Source of the DNA: an uncultured Holophagales bacterium
GTDB lineage: Bacteria > Acidobacteriota > Thermoanaerobaculia > Multivoradales > UBA5704
Direction of reading: 5' to 3'
Assembly: GCA_963842525.1 (NCBI GenBank)
Contig: CAWJGT010000024.1
Span: 128,001-192,000, forward strand
Length of the DNA stretch: 64,000 nucleotides
Every line of letters starts with the position of its first letter. Position 1 is the stretch's first letter. Both the position numbers and the translations under genes were made by a program. The notes beneath the pieces are model-generated. The model made no database searches. It had not been told where the DNA came from and was given only the letters and a program-made list of their open reading frames with translations. Positions 73 through 7,628 of this stretch are shown piece after piece.

Positions 73-1401
73 ATGCTGACCCACACCGCCCTCGCTCTGC
101 TTCTGCTGCTCCCGGCTGCTGCCTCCGCGCAGGAGCTCGACACGGCTGTTTCCGCCGTGGTGAGGATCTCCGGTACGCGCGGCGGCACGCCGGTGCGGGG
201 AACCGGCTTCGTGGTTGGCCTAGATCGCGACAAGGCCACTATCGTCACCGCCTCGCACGTGATTGAGGGGGCGCCGCAGCTCGAGGTGACTTTCGCGGTC
301 GACCCCACCGAGAATTTCCCTGCCGGGGTCGTCTTCGGGATGGACGCCGGCAGCCCCCATGGCCTTGCCGTCTTCCAGGTTCGCGGTGCGCTTCCGGCGG
401 GGGTGACCACCCTGAGCTTTGAGGTCGAGAGCCGGCCTCGTATCGGGGAGGCGTTGTTCTTGCTGGGCTTTCCGGAGATGGCGCTCGCACCACGCGCCAC
501 TCAAAGAGTGCTTTCTTCCCGGAGTGGGACGTTGCTGCTGGTCGACCAGAGGATCGGGGAAAGTTTCTCCGGTGGTCCGGTCCTCCAAGGCGGCAGGGTG
601 GTGGGCGTGGTCACCGACATGGACGAGCAAACCACGTATGCCGTCAACGCTCTGGTGGTACGCGAGGCCTTGGAGGGCTGGGGGGTAAGGCTCGGACCGG
701 CAGCGCCAGCGGTGAAAGCATGCGTTCCTGGAGAAGAGCACACCGAAAACGGTATTGTCTTCGTTCGTATCTGTCCGGGGACCTTCACCATGGGCTCGGC
801 CGAGAACGATCTACGAGCCAATGCCGACGAGGTACCGGCCCACGAGGTTACGCTGAGCGAGTTCTGGATCGGCAAGACCGAGATCACCAATGAGCAGTAC
901 CGTCGCTTCCGCTCTGATCACAAGGGCGAGGCGAGCATGCCGGCGACCGGCGTCAGTTGGGCCGATGCGAAGGCGGTCTGCGAGTACCTCGGAGGCCGGC
1001 TTCCTACCGAGGCGCAGTGGGAGTACGCCGCGCGCGCCGGAAGCCAAACCGCCTGGTCGTTCGTTGACGACGAGCGCAGGCTCGGCGAGTACGCATGGTA
1101 TGCCGAGAACTCGGGCGACACGACACACCCAGTCGGCATGAGGAAGGCCAACGCCTGGGGTCTTCACGACATGCGCGGTAACGTCTGGGAGTGGGTGGCC
1201 GACTGGTACGGCGCATACCCCAGCGTGGCGCAGACCGACCCTTCCGGCCCCGCGACAGGCACGCTACGAGTGCTGCGGGGGGGCTCCTTCGACTGCACGC
1301 CAGGGTGCTTGCGCTCCGCGTACAGGTTCAGGACCCAGCCCGGGAACCGGTACGAGGACTTCGGCTTCCGCTGCGCGCGCGCCCCGCGCCGCCAGCCTTG
1401 A
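73..1401 (+). CDS. Secreted trypsin-like peptidase domain + FGE-sulfatase (SUMF1/CLec-fold) protein, copy 1
   Basis: Signal peptide (LALLLLLPAAASA). Trypsin-like motifs GTGFVV, TASHV, SGGPV. FGE motifs FTMGS, EITNEQY, RLPTEAQWEYAARAG, NAWGLHDMRGNVWEW, RGGSF..GFRC. Confidence 0.85.
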   Translation: MLTHTALALLLLLPAAASAQELDTAVSAVVRISGTRGGTPVRGTGFVVGLDRDKATIVTASHVIEGAPQLEVTFAVDPTENFPAGVVFGMDAGSPHGLAVFQVRGALPAGVTTLSFEVESRPRIGEALFLLGFPEMALAPRATQRVLSSRSGTLLLVDQRIGESFSGGPVLQGGRVVGVVTDMDEQTTYAVNALVVREALEGWGVRLGPAAPAVKACVPGEEHTENGIVFVRICPGTFTMGSAENDLRANADEVPAHEVTLSEFWIGKTEITNEQYRRFRSDHKGEASMPATGVSWADAKAVCEYLGGRLPTEAQWEYAARAGSQTAWSFVDDERRLGEYAWYAENSGDTTHPVGMRKANAWGLHDMRGNVWEWVADWYGAYPSVAQTDPSGPATGTLRVLRGGSFDCTPGCLRSAYRFRTQPGNRYEDFGFRCARAPRRQP

Positions 1402-1475
1402 TAGCGGCTTCTCATCAGACTCGTCTGGGATATCTATCTTAGCGCTTCACCGAGATCCGACCATCTCCGAAGCGT

Positions 1476-2837
1476 ATGCTGGCCCGCACCGCCTTCGCTC
1501 TGCTTCTGCTGCTGCCGGCTGTTACCACCGCGCAGGATCTCGACACGGCTGTTTCCGCCGTGGTGAGGATCTCCGGGACGCGCGGCGGCACGCCGGTGCG
1601 GGGAAGCGGCTTCGTGGTCGCCCTGGATCGCCGCAAGGCCACAATCGTCACCGCCTCGCATGTGATCGAAGGGGTGCAGAAGCTCGAGGTCACCTTCGCG
1701 GCAGACCTGGCCGTATCGTTCCGGTCCGAGGCCGTGCTCGGGGTAGACAAAGGCAACCCTCATGGCCTGGCCGTCTTTCAGGTTCGCGGTGCGCTTCCGG
1801 CAGGGGTTACCACGCTGAGCTTCGAGGTCGAGAGCCAACCTCGTCTTCGCGAGGCGCTGTTCTTGCTAGGCTTCCCACAGATGGCACGCGCACCACGTAT
1901 GGCCCAAGGGAGGCTCTCTGCCCGGAGTGGAACGTTGCTGCTCATCGATCACGAGAGCGAAGAAGGTCTCTCTGGTGGGCCGGTGCTCCAAGACGGCAAG
2001 GTGGTGGGCGTGGTCACCAACACTGATGCTCAGACGACCTATGCCATCAACGCGGTGATGGCGCGCGAGGCCCTGCAGGGCTGGGGAGTCAAGCTCGGCG
2101 GACAGAGCAGCATCGTCCCACCGACCAAGCCGGCACCGGCAGAGCTCGTGACGTGTAGGCCCGGAGAAGAACGTACAGAGGCCGGTATCGTCTTCGTCCG
2201 CATCTGCCCGGGGACCTTCACCATGGGCTCGTCCGAGAACGACCGTCAAGCCTCGATCGTCGAGAAGCCGGCCCATCAGGTCACACTGAGCGAGTTCTGG
2301 ATCGGCAAGACCGAGATCACGAACGAGCAGTACCGAGGCCTCCGCGGTGATCATCAGAGCGAGGCCCAGTTGCCGGCGACCGAGGTTACACGGGACGCAG
2401 CGGCAGCGGCTTGCGAGCACTTCGGCGGCAGCCTTCCCACTGAGGCGGAGTGGGAGTACGCCGCGCGCGCCGGCAGCCAGACCCCATGGTCGTTCGGTAA
2501 CGATGAGAAGATGCTCGGCACATATGCTTGGTATAAAGAAAACTCGGGTAATATGCCTCATCCCGTCGGAACTAAAAATCCTAACGCCTGGGGTCTTTAC
2601 GATATGCACGGCAACGTCGAGGAATGGGTAGCCGACAGGTTCTACACCTATCCTGAGATGGCGCAAATCGACCCCAGCCCCAAGACGGGTTGGAAGCTGA
2701 ACCGCATTGTGCGAGGAGGCTCCTTCGCCCAGGAGGCTTGGCACCTGCGCTCCACAAGCCGGAATGTGACTCCGTTCCCAGAATGGAACCGGAACATCGG
2801 CTTCCGCTGTGTGCGTGCCCCCCACAGCCAGCCCTGA
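1476..2837 (+). CDS. Secreted trypsin-like + FGE-sulfatase domain protein, copy 2
   Basis: Same architecture and motifs as copy 1. About 40 bp of upstream sequence is also duplicated. Confidence 0.85.
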   Translation: MLARTAFALLLLLPAVTTAQDLDTAVSAVVRISGTRGGTPVRGSGFVVALDRRKATIVTASHVIEGVQKLEVTFAADLAVSFRSEAVLGVDKGNPHGLAVFQVRGALPAGVTTLSFEVESQPRLREALFLLGFPQMARAPRMAQGRLSARSGTLLLIDHESEEGLSGGPVLQDGKVVGVVTNTDAQTTYAINAVMAREALQGWGVKLGGQSSIVPPTKPAPAELVTCRPGEERTEAGIVFVRICPGTFTMGSSENDRQASIVEKPAHQVTLSEFWIGKTEITNEQYRGLRGDHQSEAQLPATEVTRDAAAAACEHFGGSLPTEAEWEYAARAGSQTPWSFGNDEKMLGTYAWYKENSGNMPHPVGTKNPNAWGLYDMHGNVEEWVADRFYTYPEMAQIDPSPKTGWKLNRIVRGGSFAQEAWHLRSTSRNVTPFPEWNRNIGFRCVRAPHSQP

Positions 2838-2858
2838 CCCTCAACGCTCTTGATGCTT

Positions 2859-4196
2859 ATGCTGACCCGCCTCACTCTTGCCCTGCTCCTGCTGCTCCCG
2901 GCTTCCGCCTCGGCGCAGGAGCTCGACAAGGCGGTTTCCGCCCTGGTGAGGATCTCTGGCATGCGCGGCGGCACGCCGGTGCGGGGAAGCGGCTTCGTGG
3001 TCGGCCTCGATCGTGACAAAGCTACGATCGTCACCGCCTCGCGCGTGATCGAGGGAGTGCAGCAGCTCGAGATAACCTTCGCGGCCGATCGCACCGAAAG
3101 CTTCTCTGCCAGGCTCGTGCTCGGGACGGAAGCCGGTAACCAGCGCGGCCTGGCCGCCCTCCAGGTGCTCGGTGCGCTGCCGGCGGGAGTGATCGCTCTG
3201 AGCTTCGAGACCGAGGACCGGCTTCAACAAGGTGAGGACCTCTTCCTGTTAGGTTTCCCGGAGGCGTCTACGACTCCTCTTGCTCTGTGGCGACGCCATG
3301 CCGGCCCGAACGGTAATTTCCTGCAACTGGATGGCTCTGTGGAAGAGGCCTTCTCGGGTGCTCCAGTATTTTTGAAAGACAAAGTCGTGGGGGTCGTGAC
3401 GGTGACGGACGAGGATCTGCAGCGCGTCTTTGCTGTCAAGGCCACGGTAGCTCGAAAAGCAGTCGTCGGCTGGGGAGCCAGGCTCGGCGGGCACAGTAGC
3501 ATCCAGTCGAGATGCGAGCCTGGAGAAGAGTATACCAGGGAGAACATCGTCTTCGTCCTCATCTGCCCGGCAACCTTCACGATGGGCGCTCCTGATAACG
3601 ATTCGAAAGCCGATGACAATGAGAGGCCGGCCCATCAGGTTACGCTGAGCGAATTCTGGATCAGTAAGACCGAGATGACCAACGCGCAGTACCGCCGTTT
3701 CCGCCGTGGTCATAAAGGCCCGATCAACCGCCCGGTGACCGCCATCTCCTGGGAGGAGGCGAAGGCAGCCTGCGAGCACTTTGGAGGCCGCCTTCCCACA
3801 GAAGCAGAGTGGGAGTACGCCGCCCGCGCTGGCAGCCAGACGGTCTGGTCGTTCGGTGAGGACGAAAGGAAGCTCGGCACATATGCATGGTTTATCGATA
3901 ACTCAGGGAACAAACTTCCCCTCGCCGGATCGAAAGCACCCAATTCCTGGGGCCTCTACGACATGCACGGCAGCGTCTGGGAGTGGGTAGCCGACTGGTA
4001 TGCTCCTTACCCTGGCGCAGCGCAAACCGACCCCTCCGGACCCACGACAGGCGAGTATCATATTCTGCGGGGTGGCTCCTATCTCAGTGCGCCTGGTGAC
4101 CTTCGCTCCGGGGTCCGGTCCAGGTACGACCCCAAGATCATCCGATCCGCCGACTATGGATTCCGCTGTGCCTACACCTCTAGCGAGCAGCCATGA
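2859..4196 (+). CDS. Secreted trypsin-like + FGE-sulfatase domain protein, copy 3
   Basis: Same architecture; TASH changed to TASR. Start chosen by alignment to copy 1 (alternatives 2850/2853). Confidence 0.85.
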   Translation: MLTRLTLALLLLLPASASAQELDKAVSALVRISGMRGGTPVRGSGFVVGLDRDKATIVTASRVIEGVQQLEITFAADRTESFSARLVLGTEAGNQRGLAALQVLGALPAGVIALSFETEDRLQQGEDLFLLGFPEASTTPLALWRRHAGPNGNFLQLDGSVEEAFSGAPVFLKDKVVGVVTVTDEDLQRVFAVKATVARKAVVGWGARLGGHSSIQSRCEPGEEYTRENIVFVLICPATFTMGAPDNDSKADDNERPAHQVTLSEFWISKTEMTNAQYRRFRRGHKGPINRPVTAISWEEAKAACEHFGGRLPTEAEWEYAARAGSQTVWSFGEDERKLGTYAWFIDNSGNKLPLAGSKAPNSWGLYDMHGSVWEWVADWYAPYPGAAQTDPSGPTTGEYHILRGGSYLSAPGDLRSGVRSRYDPKIIRSADYGFRCAYTSSEQP

Positions 4197-5518
4197 TGCT
4201 GATCCGAATTATCCTTGTCCTGTCTCTGTTGTTCCCAGCGGCTGCCTTTACGCAGGAGCTCGACACGGCTGTTTCCGCCCTGGTGAGGATTTCCGGGACA
4301 CGCGACGGCACCCCCGTATGGGGAACTGGTTTCGTGATCGGTTTCGATCGCGGCAAGGCGAGGATCGTCACCGCCTCGCGCGTGATCGAGGGGTTGGAGC
4401 AGATTGCGGTGACCTTCGCGGTCGACCCCGGCAAAAGCTCTCTGGCCGGAACCGTCCTCGGGTTGGACGCCGGTAATCCGAACGGCTTGGCTGCCTTGCA
4501 GGTTCGCGGTGCCCTCCCTGCAGGGGTAACGACTCTCAGCTTTGAGACCGAAAGCCGGCCGCGCGCCGGCGAGGTGTTGTCCTTGCTGGGGTTTCCAAAG
4601 GCGGAATCTGCGCCGCTCACGATCTCCAAAACCCTGTCTGCCCAGAGCGGACCTTTGCTGCTGATCAATGAGGGAATCGGAGACGGTTTCTCCGGAGGTC
4701 CCGTGCTCCAAGGCGGCAAAGTGGTGGGTATAATCACCGACATCAAGGCACAGACGACGCACGCCGTCAATGCCATCGTGGCGCGCACGGCCTCGGAGGG
4801 CTGGGGAGTCAGCGATTGCGTGCCTGGACAAGAGCGCACGGAGAACGGCATCGTCTTCGTTCGCATCTGCTCCGGGACCTTTATCATGGGCGCAAATGAG
4901 AACGACCATAGAGCCTCTGACAACCAGAAGCCGGTGCACCGGGTTACGCTGAGCGAGTTCTGGCTCGGCAGAACCGAGATCACCAACGAGCAGTTCCACG
5001 GCTTCCGTCCAGATCATGTGGACGATTCTGATCTGGAGGGTGTGCCCAATATGCCGGTAACGAAGGTCAACTGGTTTGACGCGAAGGCCGCTTGCGAGCA
5101 CTTCGGTGGCCGCCTCCCCACTGAGGCGGAGTGGGAGTACGCCGCGCGAACCGGCAAACGGACCACCTGGTCGTTCGGTGACGACGAGAAGATGCTCGAC
5201 GAATACGCTTGGTACGATAAGACCTCAAGTGGCCTGCCGCACCCTGTCGGCACGAAGAGGGCCAACTCCTGGGGTTTATATGACATGGATGGCAACGTCT
5301 CTGAGTGGGTGGCTGACAAATTCAGCCGATCCTATCCGGACAAGCCGCAAACCGATCCTACCGGTCCCAGGGAAGGCGATCTCCGTGTGGTGCGGGGGAA
5401 CACGTTCAGATTCCCATCCTGGCTCCAGAGTCCGGCTGTCCGGAGAGGGGGGCAGCCCAAGTCTGGGGACTGGACCACCGGCTTCCGCTGTGCGCGCAGC
5501 TCTTTCCGCCAGCCTTGA
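4193..5518 (+). CDS. Secreted trypsin-like + FGE-sulfatase domain protein, copy 4
   Basis: Same architecture; ATGA overlap with copy 3; TASR variant. Confidence 0.85.
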   Translation: MMLIRIILVLSLLFPAAAFTQELDTAVSALVRISGTRDGTPVWGTGFVIGFDRGKARIVTASRVIEGLEQIAVTFAVDPGKSSLAGTVLGLDAGNPNGLAALQVRGALPAGVTTLSFETESRPRAGEVLSLLGFPKAESAPLTISKTLSAQSGPLLLINEGIGDGFSGGPVLQGGKVVGIITDIKAQTTHAVNAIVARTASEGWGVSDCVPGQERTENGIVFVRICSGTFIMGANENDHRASDNQKPVHRVTLSEFWLGRTEITNEQFHGFRPDHVDDSDLEGVPNMPVTKVNWFDAKAACEHFGGRLPTEAEWEYAARTGKRTTWSFGDDEKMLDEYAWYDKTSSGLPHPVGTKRANSWGLYDMDGNVSEWVADKFSRSYPDKPQTDPTGPREGDLRVVRGNTFRFPSWLQSPAVRRGGQPKSGDWTTGFRCARSSFRQP

Positions 5519-5526
5519 CTCTTGTC

Positions 5527-6303
5527 ATGAGTGTAGAAAGCAAGAGCCAGGGCCGGCGGAAGGGAAGCACGCGATGCGGGCGGGCGATCGCCGCGGTCCT
5601 CCTCCTAATCGCTCTGCCGCTCCTAGCTCAGTACGACCCCGCGCTCCAGTACCAGAACCGTGGCAACCGCTATGAGGGCCTCAAGCCCAAGCCGGTGAGC
5701 GGCTACGACATCGAGCTTCTCTCCGCCCTCGTCGACTACCGCGAGCCGAGCCCCGCCTGGCCTCCCACACTGCGCCTCAAGTTCTACCTCCCCGCCACCG
5801 AGCCGGTCTTCGTCACCGTCCGCCAGCCGCGGCCCAAGACCGCCTACTACTGGCTCGACAAGGTCGTCCCTCCTGCACCCTGGCGCCCTCGGGTGCTCAA
5901 CGAGTTCTCCTGGCCCACGAAGCCCGTGCTCCAGAAGTTGAGCTCGGTGACCCTCGACGACCTGGGAGTCGTGGTGCGCCTGCGCCAGCAAGATCCGTCC
6001 AGGAGAGAGACGATCGCCCCGGCAGCGCTTTTTCACACGCAGCCACCACCGGCCGCGAGCGGCTATCGTTTTACGTTCAAGACCAACGGCACAGCCCACG
6101 TCACCTGCAAGATCTACCGGGGCGACAAAGAGGTCTACCAACGGCCCCAGAATCGTGAGAGGGCCGGCAGCCCTTTCACTTTGAGCTGGGATACCCAGGG
6201 CCAACCGGAAGGCGAGTACCGCCTCGCGCTCTCCGGCTACTTCGACGACAACACCCCGCTCGCCAAAGAGGTGCTCTTCTACCACAGGGCCGCCTGGAAA
6301 TGA
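5527..6303 (+). CDS. Hypothetical secreted/anchored protein, beta-rich
   Basis: Coding-like GC3, N-terminal hydrophobic segment (AIAAVLLLIALPLLA), operonic spacing; no recognised family. Confidence 0.7.
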   Translation: MSVESKSQGRRKGSTRCGRAIAAVLLLIALPLLAQYDPALQYQNRGNRYEGLKPKPVSGYDIELLSALVDYREPSPAWPPTLRLKFYLPATEPVFVTVRQPRPKTAYYWLDKVVPPAPWRPRVLNEFSWPTKPVLQKLSSVTLDDLGVVVRLRQQDPSRRETIAPAALFHTQPPPAASGYRFTFKTNGTAHVTCKIYRGDKEVYQRPQNRERAGSPFTLSWDTQGQPEGEYRLALSGYFDDNTPLAKEVLFYHRAAWK

Positions 6304-7451
6304 GCGCCGTGGAAAGCAAGAAAGCGGCGCCACGCCGCTCGCGTTCGCTCCTCTGGCTGGCGCTGCCGACCCTGGTCCTCCTGCCGCTGGTCGTGCTTTC
6401 AACTTTCTGGCACCTTTCCACCCGCGTCCAACTTGAGGTTGCGACCCAACGGCTCGCCTTCACCTTGGGAGGAGAGGGGAGCCACGAGATCCTCGGTCGC
6501 TCGGTGCCTTTCTCGTCCCTCGTCGTCGAAGATTGCGGCGCCGTGGCCTTCGCCGCTGAGAAGCTGGAGATCGCTGATCCGCGACAACTCGTGCCTGGAA
6601 CAGAAGCCGGCGCAACACCGGACTTTCCCCCAGCGGCCTGGCGCGAGCTAACACCCACCGGCCCGGTGAAGCTTTTGTGCCGCGACCCGGCGGCCAAGCT
6701 GACCCTCCAGAACCCCGATCCCGTCGCCGGACGGTTGGGGCTCCTCGATCGCATCCGTTTCGCGCCAGGCTCGCAGGTGGTTCTCGAGGTCTCTCCGGGT
6801 CGAGAGCCCGCTCTCAGCCTGGAGATCGAGATGCCCCTGGAGCTCAACCTCGCGCTTGGCCCCGACCTCGAGGTCGTGACCGACTTCGTCGAGGCCAAGG
6901 GCATGGCCGTGCCCTTCCCCGCGGGCCTCCTGACCTGGCGGGCGCGGCTTCCGGAGGCGCGCCGGACGGTCGAGGTCACGAGCGGCGAGCACGGTCTGAT
7001 CTTGATCGTGACCCCCGCTCGGGACCAGCTCGCGAAGCTCTTCCGCGAGCCGCTCGACCTCCCGCTCGCCTCGGTGGAGCTGCTCGAAGAGGATCTCGAA
7101 GGGAAGCTCACGACGCCGCTCCGCGACAGGGCCAGCCTCAGCTACCCCGAATATCCCGCTGTCCCGGCCGTGACCATCGAGAAAGACGAGGCTGTGGGGC
7201 TTGGGAGGCTCTCGCAGGCGCGCCTGAGAAGCCTGGAGCTCGACGCCGGGAAGGGTGCGCTGCGGGCGCGCTTCGACGGTGTGGCTGATCGTGCCACCAG
7301 CCGTTCCGGACAGTTTGTCAGCGACCACCGCCTGACGCTCTTCCATATCTTTCGCTATAGCTGGCGCTGGGGGGCGATCGCGGTCGCTGCGGCGTGGATC
7401 GTTTCCACGACCTGGGTTGCCTTCGAAGCTCGGAAGAAGCTCCAGGAGTGA
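6300..7451 (+). CDS. Hypothetical membrane protein (N- and C-terminal TM helices, large extracytoplasmic domain)
   Basis: ATGA overlap with the previous gene; hydrophobic segments at both ends. Confidence 0.7.
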   Translation: MSAVESKKAAPRRSRSLLWLALPTLVLLPLVVLSTFWHLSTRVQLEVATQRLAFTLGGEGSHEILGRSVPFSSLVVEDCGAVAFAAEKLEIADPRQLVPGTEAGATPDFPPAAWRELTPTGPVKLLCRDPAAKLTLQNPDPVAGRLGLLDRIRFAPGSQVVLEVSPGREPALSLEIEMPLELNLALGPDLEVVTDFVEAKGMAVPFPAGLLTWRARLPEARRTVEVTSGEHGLILIVTPARDQLAKLFREPLDLPLASVELLEEDLEGKLTTPLRDRASLSYPEYPAVPAVTIEKDEAVGLGRLSQARLRSLELDAGKGALRARFDGVADRATSRSGQFVSDHRLTLFHIFRYSWRWGAIAVAAAWIVSTTWVAFEARKKLQE

Positions 7452-7628
7452 GGTGCCCCCCGCGACTCTTCCGGGGGGCGGAGAGCAACTTCTTCGCCCT
7501 TTTGCGCGTATTCAGGCTCGTGGAGCGGGCCCTGCCCTGGCATCCGGGCACCGGATCGGCTATCCTGGCGGCCGGTTTCCCCAGACTCCGTAGATTCCGC
7601 ACGACACGCAACACGAGGAGGAATATCG

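Follow-up and report, generated by a model that had tools for sequence, protein, structure and literature searches.

The last 44 codons of the first gene in the window (the whole 64,000-nucleotide stretch of DNA that was analysed), at positions 1267-1398, are very likely a fossil variable region (VR), left in a gene that was once a DGR target, probably a remote one, and has since become fixed. The first-pass annotation had proposed that this gene, copy 1 of a tandem array, is a "current or recent" target of a DGR located elsewhere. On an evolutionary scale "recent" can be retained, whereas "current" has to be given up: there is no adenine-mismatched template repeat (TR) for it in the assembly, the one complete DGR that the genome does possess has a different TR, which matches its own VR only, the cognate cassette is a relic, and the ten variable codons are stable in contigs from soil.

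Four tandem paralogs, all on the plus strand (73-1401, 1476-2837, 2850-4196 and 4193-5518), occupy the start of the window. Each of them carries a hydrophobic N-terminal leader, recognized by eye, followed by the Pfam domains Trypsin_2 and FGE-sulfatase, and the latter ends no more than six residues before the stop codon. The open reading frame of copy 1 (73-1401, plus strand) encodes 442 amino acids that combine a signal peptide, a trypsin-like serine peptidase and an FGE-sulfatase domain of C-type-lectin fold. Trypsin_2 spans residues 43-179 (E 4.3e-12, above the gathering score), and FGE-sulfatase residues 231-436 of 442 (E 1e-51). The translation, read by eye, suggests a signal peptide at residues 1-19 (ending in AAASA, with QE following) and a peptidase that appears to retain its His motif TASHV and its Ser motif SGGP, the Asp residue lying outside this assignment. 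The product of copy 1 may be a secreted protease aimed by its lectin domain.

The VR-like segment (1267-1398, plus strand) comprises 44 codons that read RVLRGGSF...GFRCARAPRRQP, with the stop codon at 1399-1401. It lies where a VR is found, at the C-terminal end of an FGE/C-type-lectin fold, and it is divided into a hypervariable core (1291-1362, plus strand), with ten NNC codons opposite the AAY codons of the template, and a GC-rich constant 3' scaffold that follows it (1363-1398, plus strand; GGC TTC CGC TGC GCG CGC GCC CCG CGC CGC CAG CCT). This scaffold constitutes the IMH-like end, the point at which VR/TR homology stops in living relatives, and has the VR-type ending RRQP followed by the stop codon. 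Both the scaffold and the ending match most VRs of the living cassettes in the class, which mostly terminate in RRQP plus stop (one in RRQR plus stop, and two continue as RRQH), while their TRs continue as RRQHA. Following the BPP-1 model, the scaffold is presumably the homing signal.

The codons quoted in the first-pass annotation are present as written, with GGC TCC TTC at 1282-1290, followed by GAC TGC ACG CCA GGG TGC TTG CGC TCC GCG TAC AGG TTC AGG ACC CAG CCC GGG AAC CGG TAC GAG GAC TTC GGC TTC CGC. Its remark that all ten variable positions end in C was made on a typical FGE-type template pattern, and it remains valid when a natural TR takes the place of that pattern. The ten AAY codons of the TR at locus L066 face GAC TGC TGC TAC TTC ACC AAC TAC GAC TTC in copy 1, ten out of ten ending in C, and the AAY codons of the TR at L074 face NNC in 8/8 cases. 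In the upstream part of the same gene (398 codons) the share of NNC codons is 42.2%, and in 1566 long ORFs taken as a crude sample of the whole genome it is 42.5%; on this background of about 42%, ten out of ten would be expected by chance with a probability of about 2e-4, for positions that were chosen post hoc. The AGG codons, described as uncommon in this genome, are so genome-wide (5.6% of Arg codons in the crude ORF set) but not in the array, where they account for 23 of the 128 Arg codons of the four tandem genes, so that the two AGG codons of the tail weigh little alone.

Stronger evidence than the NNC count is provided by the pattern of mismatches against natural templates. A degenerate scaffold pattern, scanned over genome contigs with one genome per species, gave 110 stretches, and 80 loci were fetched. 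They contain 81 distinct segments, six of which are TR-like and rich in Asn (L056, L066, L072, L074, L079 and L090; ..GGSFNNRARNLRSANRNRNTPENRNRNNGFRCVRGSRRQH.. and ..GGSFINPAQNLRSANRNRNRPENRNRNIGFRCVRSPRRQH.. are examples). All six come from other phyla or orders, and four of them have one or two VRs close by, in the layout VR1 (+), TR (+), VR2 (-). Copy 1 differs from these living TRs at 14-20 of 24-30 adenine sites and at 14-30 of 99-105 other sites, an enrichment with Fisher p values from 7.6e-8 to 3.7e-3; in the best case, 20/30 adenine sites are mismatched versus 14/99 other sites (p = 8e-8). These adenine-site mismatches against six TRs, together with the ten NNC codons out of ten, bear out the reading of the tail as a DGR variable region. 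This evidence is indirect, as the cognate TR itself is gone, but the clustering of substitutions at template adenines indicates that the copy 1 tail was DGR-written.

VR-shaped tails are present on all four tandem copies, at different stages of decay. Copy 2 (1476-2837, plus strand) has a decayed VR-like tail at 2703-2837, with a weak adenine bias against the living TRs (p 0.002-0.2) and mismatches to the copy 1 tail at 30/98 scaffold sites. The decayed VR-like tail of copy 3 (2850-4196, plus strand), at 4059-4196, also shows a weak adenine bias. Copy 4 (4193-5518, plus strand) has the most diverged tail of the array, with RGN replacing RGG.

The closest counterparts of the copy 1 tail are found on another contig, at C3:1675 kb, in two convergent FGE genes. 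The long one encodes 882 aa, has a long N-terminal region and lies downstream of a gene for an AAA_5 (MoxR-like) ATPase; the product of the short one has 562 aa at most and carries a hydrophobic stretch ahead of the FGE domain. Their tails show an adenine bias against the six living TRs like that of copy 1. The two genes (C3plus and C3minus) share 58% nucleotide identity in the upstream part of the FGE domain, where the same codon is used at 37 of 78 identical residues, versus 88% in the VR (from the R of RVLRGG to the stop), where the same codon is used at 31 of 31. The 16 differences between the two VRs are distributed as 9, 7 and 0 over codon positions 1, 2 and 3. A GC-rich hairpin shortly downstream of the VR is reportedly an accessory feature in BPP-1. 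Both C3 VRs have one, of about 8-10 bp and about 26 nt past the stop codon, and none of that form is found downstream of copy 1; the feature is not universal, and the C3 hairpins may be plain terminators.

In relation to these genes copy 1 is a mosaic. Upstream of the VR its identity is 73-75% with copies 2-4 and 58-66% with the C3 genes, while in the VR it is 78-81% with the C3 genes and 59-63% with copies 2-4. The switch occurs at alignment column 214, equivalent to window position 1267, where nucleotide identity to the C3 genes rises from about 0.6 to about 0.8 and identity to copies 2-4 falls, so that the segment has a sharp 5' boundary with its sister VRs. The 129 aligned VR positions can be split into 31 adenine sites, where either of two living TRs has an adenine, and the remaining 98 scaffold sites. 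The copy 1 tail differs from the C3 tails at 8-9/98 scaffold sites and 16-21/31 adenine sites, and the C3 tails differ from each other at 1/98 and 15/31, respectively. The mosaic structure and a scaffold held in common with two genes on another contig fit a remote target, in line with the proposal of a DGR located elsewhere, except that no complete cognate DGR is present in the assembly. As the copy 1 scaffold departs from that of the C3 genes at 8-9 non-adenine sites, copy 1 may last have been written from a TR that differed from, or predated, the one used for the C3 pair.

Within the 554-nt spacer between the two C3 genes lie an inverted repeat of 48 nt, the beginning of an HTH gene and two RT fragments, each about 65 nt long (..GPTYEQGFIDQSYAC.. 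and ..DRLVRSLRSYRGLLLSV with a stop codon, at C3:1675.6-1675.7 kb). These correspond to the N-terminal part and the extreme C-terminus of the RT of a genome of the same genus, G002, with 82-85% nucleotide identity. In relatives, a DGR-type RT is located between the counterparts of the C3 convergent pair. The open frame of the G002 RT has 276 aa and begins just ahead of IRDPKTR. Compared with those of the loci L106 and L067, this RT is devoid of its N-terminus, and it directly adjoins the HTH gene, so that both Avd and TR are lacking at this site. The RT of G024 is frameshifted and split over several frames, and the adjoining target ends right against it. Judged by its sequence, the cognate cassette is dead in three genomes, the present one (G000), G002 and G024, with a different lesion in each.

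Two loci retain the complete arrangement. L106 has the order target, HTH, Avd-like, TR, RT (344 aa) and convergent short target, and L067 has the same layout; both are living cassettes with a TR of the copy 1 scaffold. The G002 RT is 69% identical to that of L067 and 61.5% to that of L106, versus 40-44% to the RT of DGR#1, the complete DGR of the genome under study, and this closeness of the remnant to the L067 and L106 enzymes identifies the cognate diversifier of the copy 1 scaffold. A scan of metagenome contigs with an exact 28-nt piece of the C3 scaffold retrieved two contigs, both with a living TR, HTH and RT. Their TR was rejected as the genome's own template, given that it is one codon longer and that the accompanying RT shares just 53-56% identity with the G002 remnant. 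As a cousin, it shows a scaffold that, on this sequence comparison, is tightly conserved at the nucleotide level among distant members of the class. Genome-specific scaffolds are common to several genes within a genome: in G002 to the convergent pair and, in part, to one array gene, and in G022 to four tails, two of them in tandem-array genes. Multi-target writing therefore went on after the lineages had split.

The model proposed here starts from copy 1 as a predicted secreted trypsin-like protease fused to a binding domain of C-type-lectin/FGE fold, whose last 44 codons would have been overwritten by mutagenic retrohoming, that is, by cDNA made from a TR with its adenines randomised. The diversifier responsible would belong to the class with the order target 1, HTH, Avd, TR, RT and convergent target 2, and its cassette would once have stood in the spacer of the convergent C3:1675 kb pair, on a contig other than that of copy 1. 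Copy 1 would have served as a remote target, overwritten where it now lies, and all three VRs probably go back to a single TR or to an earlier form of it. The TR, Avd and nearly the whole RT of the C3 cassette have since been deleted, which would have frozen the three VRs of its scaffold, those of copy 1 and of the C3 pair. Copy 1 would have drifted slightly since then, accumulating the 8-9 changes seen at 98 scaffold sites.

An alternative is a tail that was DGR-written but never at this locus. A diversified FGE tail could have been moved here by recombination or gene conversion, or an ancestor of the array could have stood beside the cassette. The identity switch at column 214 also resembles a recombination breakpoint, VR-shaped tails in different stages of decay are borne by all four tandem copies, and a cyanobacterial paralog with remnant TR-VR homology and no nearby RT is read as target dispersal in the main text of PMC7517822. 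However, with 16-21 differences at 31 adenine sites from the C3 VRs, copy 1 is a copy of neither, and the tandem-array genes of G022 and G002 bear the scaffold of their own genome, for which homing in trans within each lineage is an easier explanation than repeated transfers. Transfer of a finished tail is therefore considered unlikely, and the fossil VR of a target that was itself written, in trans, is preferred.

The search for a template covered the whole assembly (9.95 Mb in 34 contigs, 96.4% complete). The 126-nt VR was scanned over both strands of the 34 contigs, tolerating any mismatch where the genome has an adenine, and was also compared by blastn with word size 7; neither procedure found a TR for the copy 1 tail in any contig. 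Apart from the query itself, the best windows were the tails of the gene pair at C3:1675 kb, which have 23 and 29 non-adenine mismatches over 126 nt, followed by the tandem paralogs and then by a background of at least 39 (at least 36 over the scans of the copy 1 and C3 tails taken together). The genome-wide BLASTN suggested in the first-pass annotation, for a near-identical copy mismatched at adenines beside an RT/Avd gene, thus returned no such copy, the best matches being other VRs with at least 23 non-adenine mismatches per 126 nt. The same adenine-tolerant scan found no TR for the two C3 tails in the assembly, and none in the window, in agreement with the earlier statement that no template repeat is present there. 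The accompanying statement that the window has no RT also holds, as none of the 18 RVT_1 matches of the genome falls on its contig, C24. Outside the window, the genome has at least eight more VR-shaped FGE tails beyond copy 1 and the C3 pair, in three other scaffold families and none with a TR, and tblastn found no RT remnants between two further convergent VR pairs, on C14 and C1.

A single DGR-type RT and a single Avd were found in the assembly. The DGR-type RT motif, identified by eye, is seen in the RT at C3:961 kb and is absent from the other RVT_1 matches; these 17 were discarded by eye as multi-copy intron-type, fragmentary or non-DGR, in a sorting that left out one truncated RT at C14:161.6-162.5 kb. 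The RT at C3:961 kb belongs to DGR#1, the only complete DGR in the assembly (C3:958-962 kb, locus L010), with the order FGE-type target with VR (L010:6152-6296), HTH gene, Avd (NF033474, E 2.7e-11, under the curated cut-off), TR (L010:7647-7791) and RT. The frame of this RT breaks at an A-run and resumes with YVDD. Its VR and TR differ at 16 positions, 15 of them TR adenines and one not. The TR scaffold of DGR#1 (..GGSSWNDADRTRAAYRNIRNPGNEIRNQGFRVLL..) differs from that of copy 1, and in the TR scan it matched its own VR only, the next window having 28 non-adenine mismatches, which excludes DGR#1 as the diversifier of copy 1. Both systems have an FGE-type VR, but with unlike scaffolds, and copy 1 lies outside the targets of DGR#1.

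Among relatives, 41 genomes were searched by blast with the copy 1 VR, which yielded 25 matches; none of the 19 segments translated is rich in Asn, as a TR would be, and six short or partial matches were left untranslated. DGR-type RTs occur in 8 of 92 genomes of the family at E <= 1e-25. Of five other DGR loci examined in relatives, four have TR/VR pairs, with scaffolds that differ from that of copy 1.

Variation among strains was assessed in public sequencing runs, all of them as contigs, in which the best share of sampled words was 0.11, reads of the source sample lying outside these data. Four soil runs from four studies provided Logan contigs of low depth (2-3x), which represent a consensus from which rare variants are dropped. 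These contigs cover 1184-1397, 1244-1401, 1169-1300 plus 1305-1401, and 1206-1320, with 4-10 differences each, and the differences inside 1267-1401 are just 1297 A>G, 1309 T>C and 1332 G>T. Where covered by the contigs of the four soil runs, the ten NNC codons show no changes, and hypervariation limited to adenine-derived positions was not seen in these consensus contigs of depth 2-3, which do not derive from the source sample. The copy 1 VR is stable among strains at the consensus level, which argues against ongoing diversification.

These results bear directly on the possibility that copy 1 is still an active remote target, served by a TR and RT that are encoded in the few percent of the genome missing from the assembly, reside on a mobile element left unbinned, or are supplied in trans. 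Remote targets and activity in trans are documented in the main texts of PMC5758913 and PMC10907252, and an assembly that is 96.4% complete and divided into 34 contigs could have a second cassette unassembled or unbinned. In addition, one DGR RT is kept, perhaps a functional one if its frameshift is an assembly error, and the VR-type 3' end of copy 1 is intact. Against this, 9.95 Mb contain no TR for copy 1 and the TR of DGR#1 matches one VR only, the syntenic cassette is visibly deleted, and the variable codons are unchanged in strain contigs from four studies. The drift at 8-9 of 98 non-adenine scaffold sites also counts against activity, since recent homing would have erased it. A target still being written is thus very unlikely. 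The opposite proposal, that the tail has no DGR history and is an ordinary FGE tail shaped by GC-rich codon usage and diversifying selection at binding residues, is hardly credible and for practical purposes refuted by the codon pattern of the C3 VRs, the RT relic and the adenine bias: NNC codons are indeed common (42%) and the GGS..LRSA..GFR motif is general to FGE domains, but ten NNC out of ten has a chance of about 2e-4, the adenine-site bias reaches p values down to 8e-8, the C3 VRs show zero third-position differences despite 58% identity upstream, and RT remnants lie between the C3 genes.

As the fossil VR of copy 1 illustrates, one gene alone can still display a DGR signature when the retroelement has long been lost, and the source of orphan VRs can be followed to a decayed cassette in another part of the genome. 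It implies for annotation that FGE tails with this codon pattern are not proof of ongoing hypermutation. It also adds a trypsin-lectin fusion with a signal peptide to the proteins shaped by DGRs, and the series of lesions (truncated, frameshifted and nearly erased) offers material for understanding how and why diversifiers get lost. A tentative extension is that the DGRs of this lineage could be write-then-discard diversifiers, whose variants are fixed by loss of RT and TR and kept as a hard-wired repertoire of paralogs. This idea derives from the three lesions, in G000, G002 and G024, which followed the writing of genome-specific scaffolds on several genes, and from the eight or more further VR-shaped FGE tails of the genome under study, none with a TR. 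If it is true, the four tandem genes for secreted protease-lectin proteins, with their different binding tails, would be an example of such a hard-wired repertoire.

The literature already contains examples of remote targets, incomplete loci and remnant VRs, and current understanding is not overturned by this case. According to the main text of Wu et al. 2018 (PMC5758913), remote targets exist and FGE-sulfatase targets have many N-terminal domains. The TvpA-type targets of Treponema denticola treated there resemble copy 1 in having a C-terminal VR in an FGE-sulfatase domain and in that several targets, some of them distant, share one TR, although TR and RT are present in that system and absent here. 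The word "Trypsin" has no occurrences in that main text, the supplementary tables being outside this scope, and the main texts of PMC5758913, PMC10907252, PMC7159879 and PMC7517822, supplements again apart, contain no mention that was found of a Trypsin_2-FGE fusion as a DGR target.

Two-target loci, which combine a short with a long CLec target and have trypsin-like effectors nearby, are described in the main text of Dore et al. 2024 (PMC10907252), as are incomplete loci with candidate remote targets, and the main text of Kaur et al. 2020 (PMC7159879) treats FGS domains linked to DGRs in MoxR-vWA systems. The C3 pair is like the "clade 5A" two-target loci of the former paper, with a long target and a short CLec-only one in convergent orientation and with TR and RT between them, and the living cassettes L067 and L106 keep the same order. 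The AAA_5 (MoxR-like) ATPase upstream of the long target at C3:1675 kb likewise recalls the "clade 5A" and MoxR-type conflict loci described in PMC10907252 and PMC7159879. Unlike "clade 5A" loci, the cassette studied here is a deletion relic, likened to them by its layout. Moreover, copy 1 has its trypsin domain joined to the variable lectin, behind a signal peptide, and does not encode it as a separate effector in the cytoplasm.

A further parallel to copy 1 comes from cyanobacteria, for which the main text of Vallota-Eastman et al. 2020 (PMC7517822) documents a degraded cassette as well as a paralog that retains VR-like sequence with no RT close by; the authors suggest that diversification components are removed after a variant has been selected. 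Copy 1 shares with that remnant the combination of an orphan VR and a degraded cassette. It differs from it in belonging to another phylum, in that the relic can be traced in place, in three genomes with three lesions, and in that the orphan VR is carried by a protease fusion.

At least eight additional FGE-sulfatase gene tails shaped like a DGR variable region (VR) are found in the bacterium's own genome, where they sort into three other scaffold families. They lie, by assembly contig, on C4 (104978-105106, + strand), C9 (1916740-1916868 and 1921038-1921166, both -), C14 (203798-203926, +, and 204948-205076, -), C28 (6203-6331, -) and C1 (486333-486464, +, and 486795-486917, -), and two groups among them, those on C14 and C1, form convergent pairs. 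The adenine-tolerant scan, a genome-wide search in which mismatches at adenine sites are allowed, found no template repeat (TR) for any of these tails, and tblastn detected no reverse transcriptase (RT) remnant in the spacers of the C14 and C1 pairs.

The genome also carries four sets of full-length RT genes, 450-530 aa long, each set with 2 to 4 identical or near-identical copies; these genes, together with fragments, are found on several contigs (for example C3:1640978-1642426, C6:149483-150853 and C3:361034-362386). Judged by eye from their sequences, these multi-copy sets look like group II intron RTs. A truncated RT also lies at C14:161586-162488. In the complete DGR at C3:956-962 kb (L010:3051-8945, in locus coordinates), the TIR, NACHT and FGE parts of the target are spread over three overlapping frames, and the RT has a frameshift at an A-run near L010:8620; these split frames could reflect assembly indels or early decay.

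The codon usage of the four-gene tandem array is atypical for this genome: AGG provides 23 of the 128 Arg codons in these genes (window 73-5518), against a 5.6% share of Arg codons in a rough set of ORFs taken from the whole genome. An AT-rich patch lies in copy 2 at about window 2520-2600. The 66-nt spacer between copies 1 and 2 (window 1402-1467) is replaced by 17 nt of different sequence in one soil-run contig (X3), a junction that is a strain variant of this intergenic region. Neither of the two ORFs located 3' of the array (262 and 383 aa, window 5515-7451) has a Pfam match at E <= 0.001.

The relic spacer at C3:1675 kb (locus L009), which separates the convergent FGE genes sharing the VR scaffold of copy 1, harbors between its HTH remnant and its RT fragments a 48-nt inverted repeat, 85% complementary (L009:7471-7518 and 7552-7599; C3:1675.47-1675.60 kb), possibly a small element that was inserted there. 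The VR scaffold of this locus shares an identical stretch of 28 nt with a living TR on two metagenome contigs (L165 and L166), although the RT beside that TR shares only 53-56% identity with the RT remnant of the lineage's own cassette in a same-genus relative (G002); the nucleotide sequence of the TR scaffold is therefore conserved even between distant members of this DGR class.
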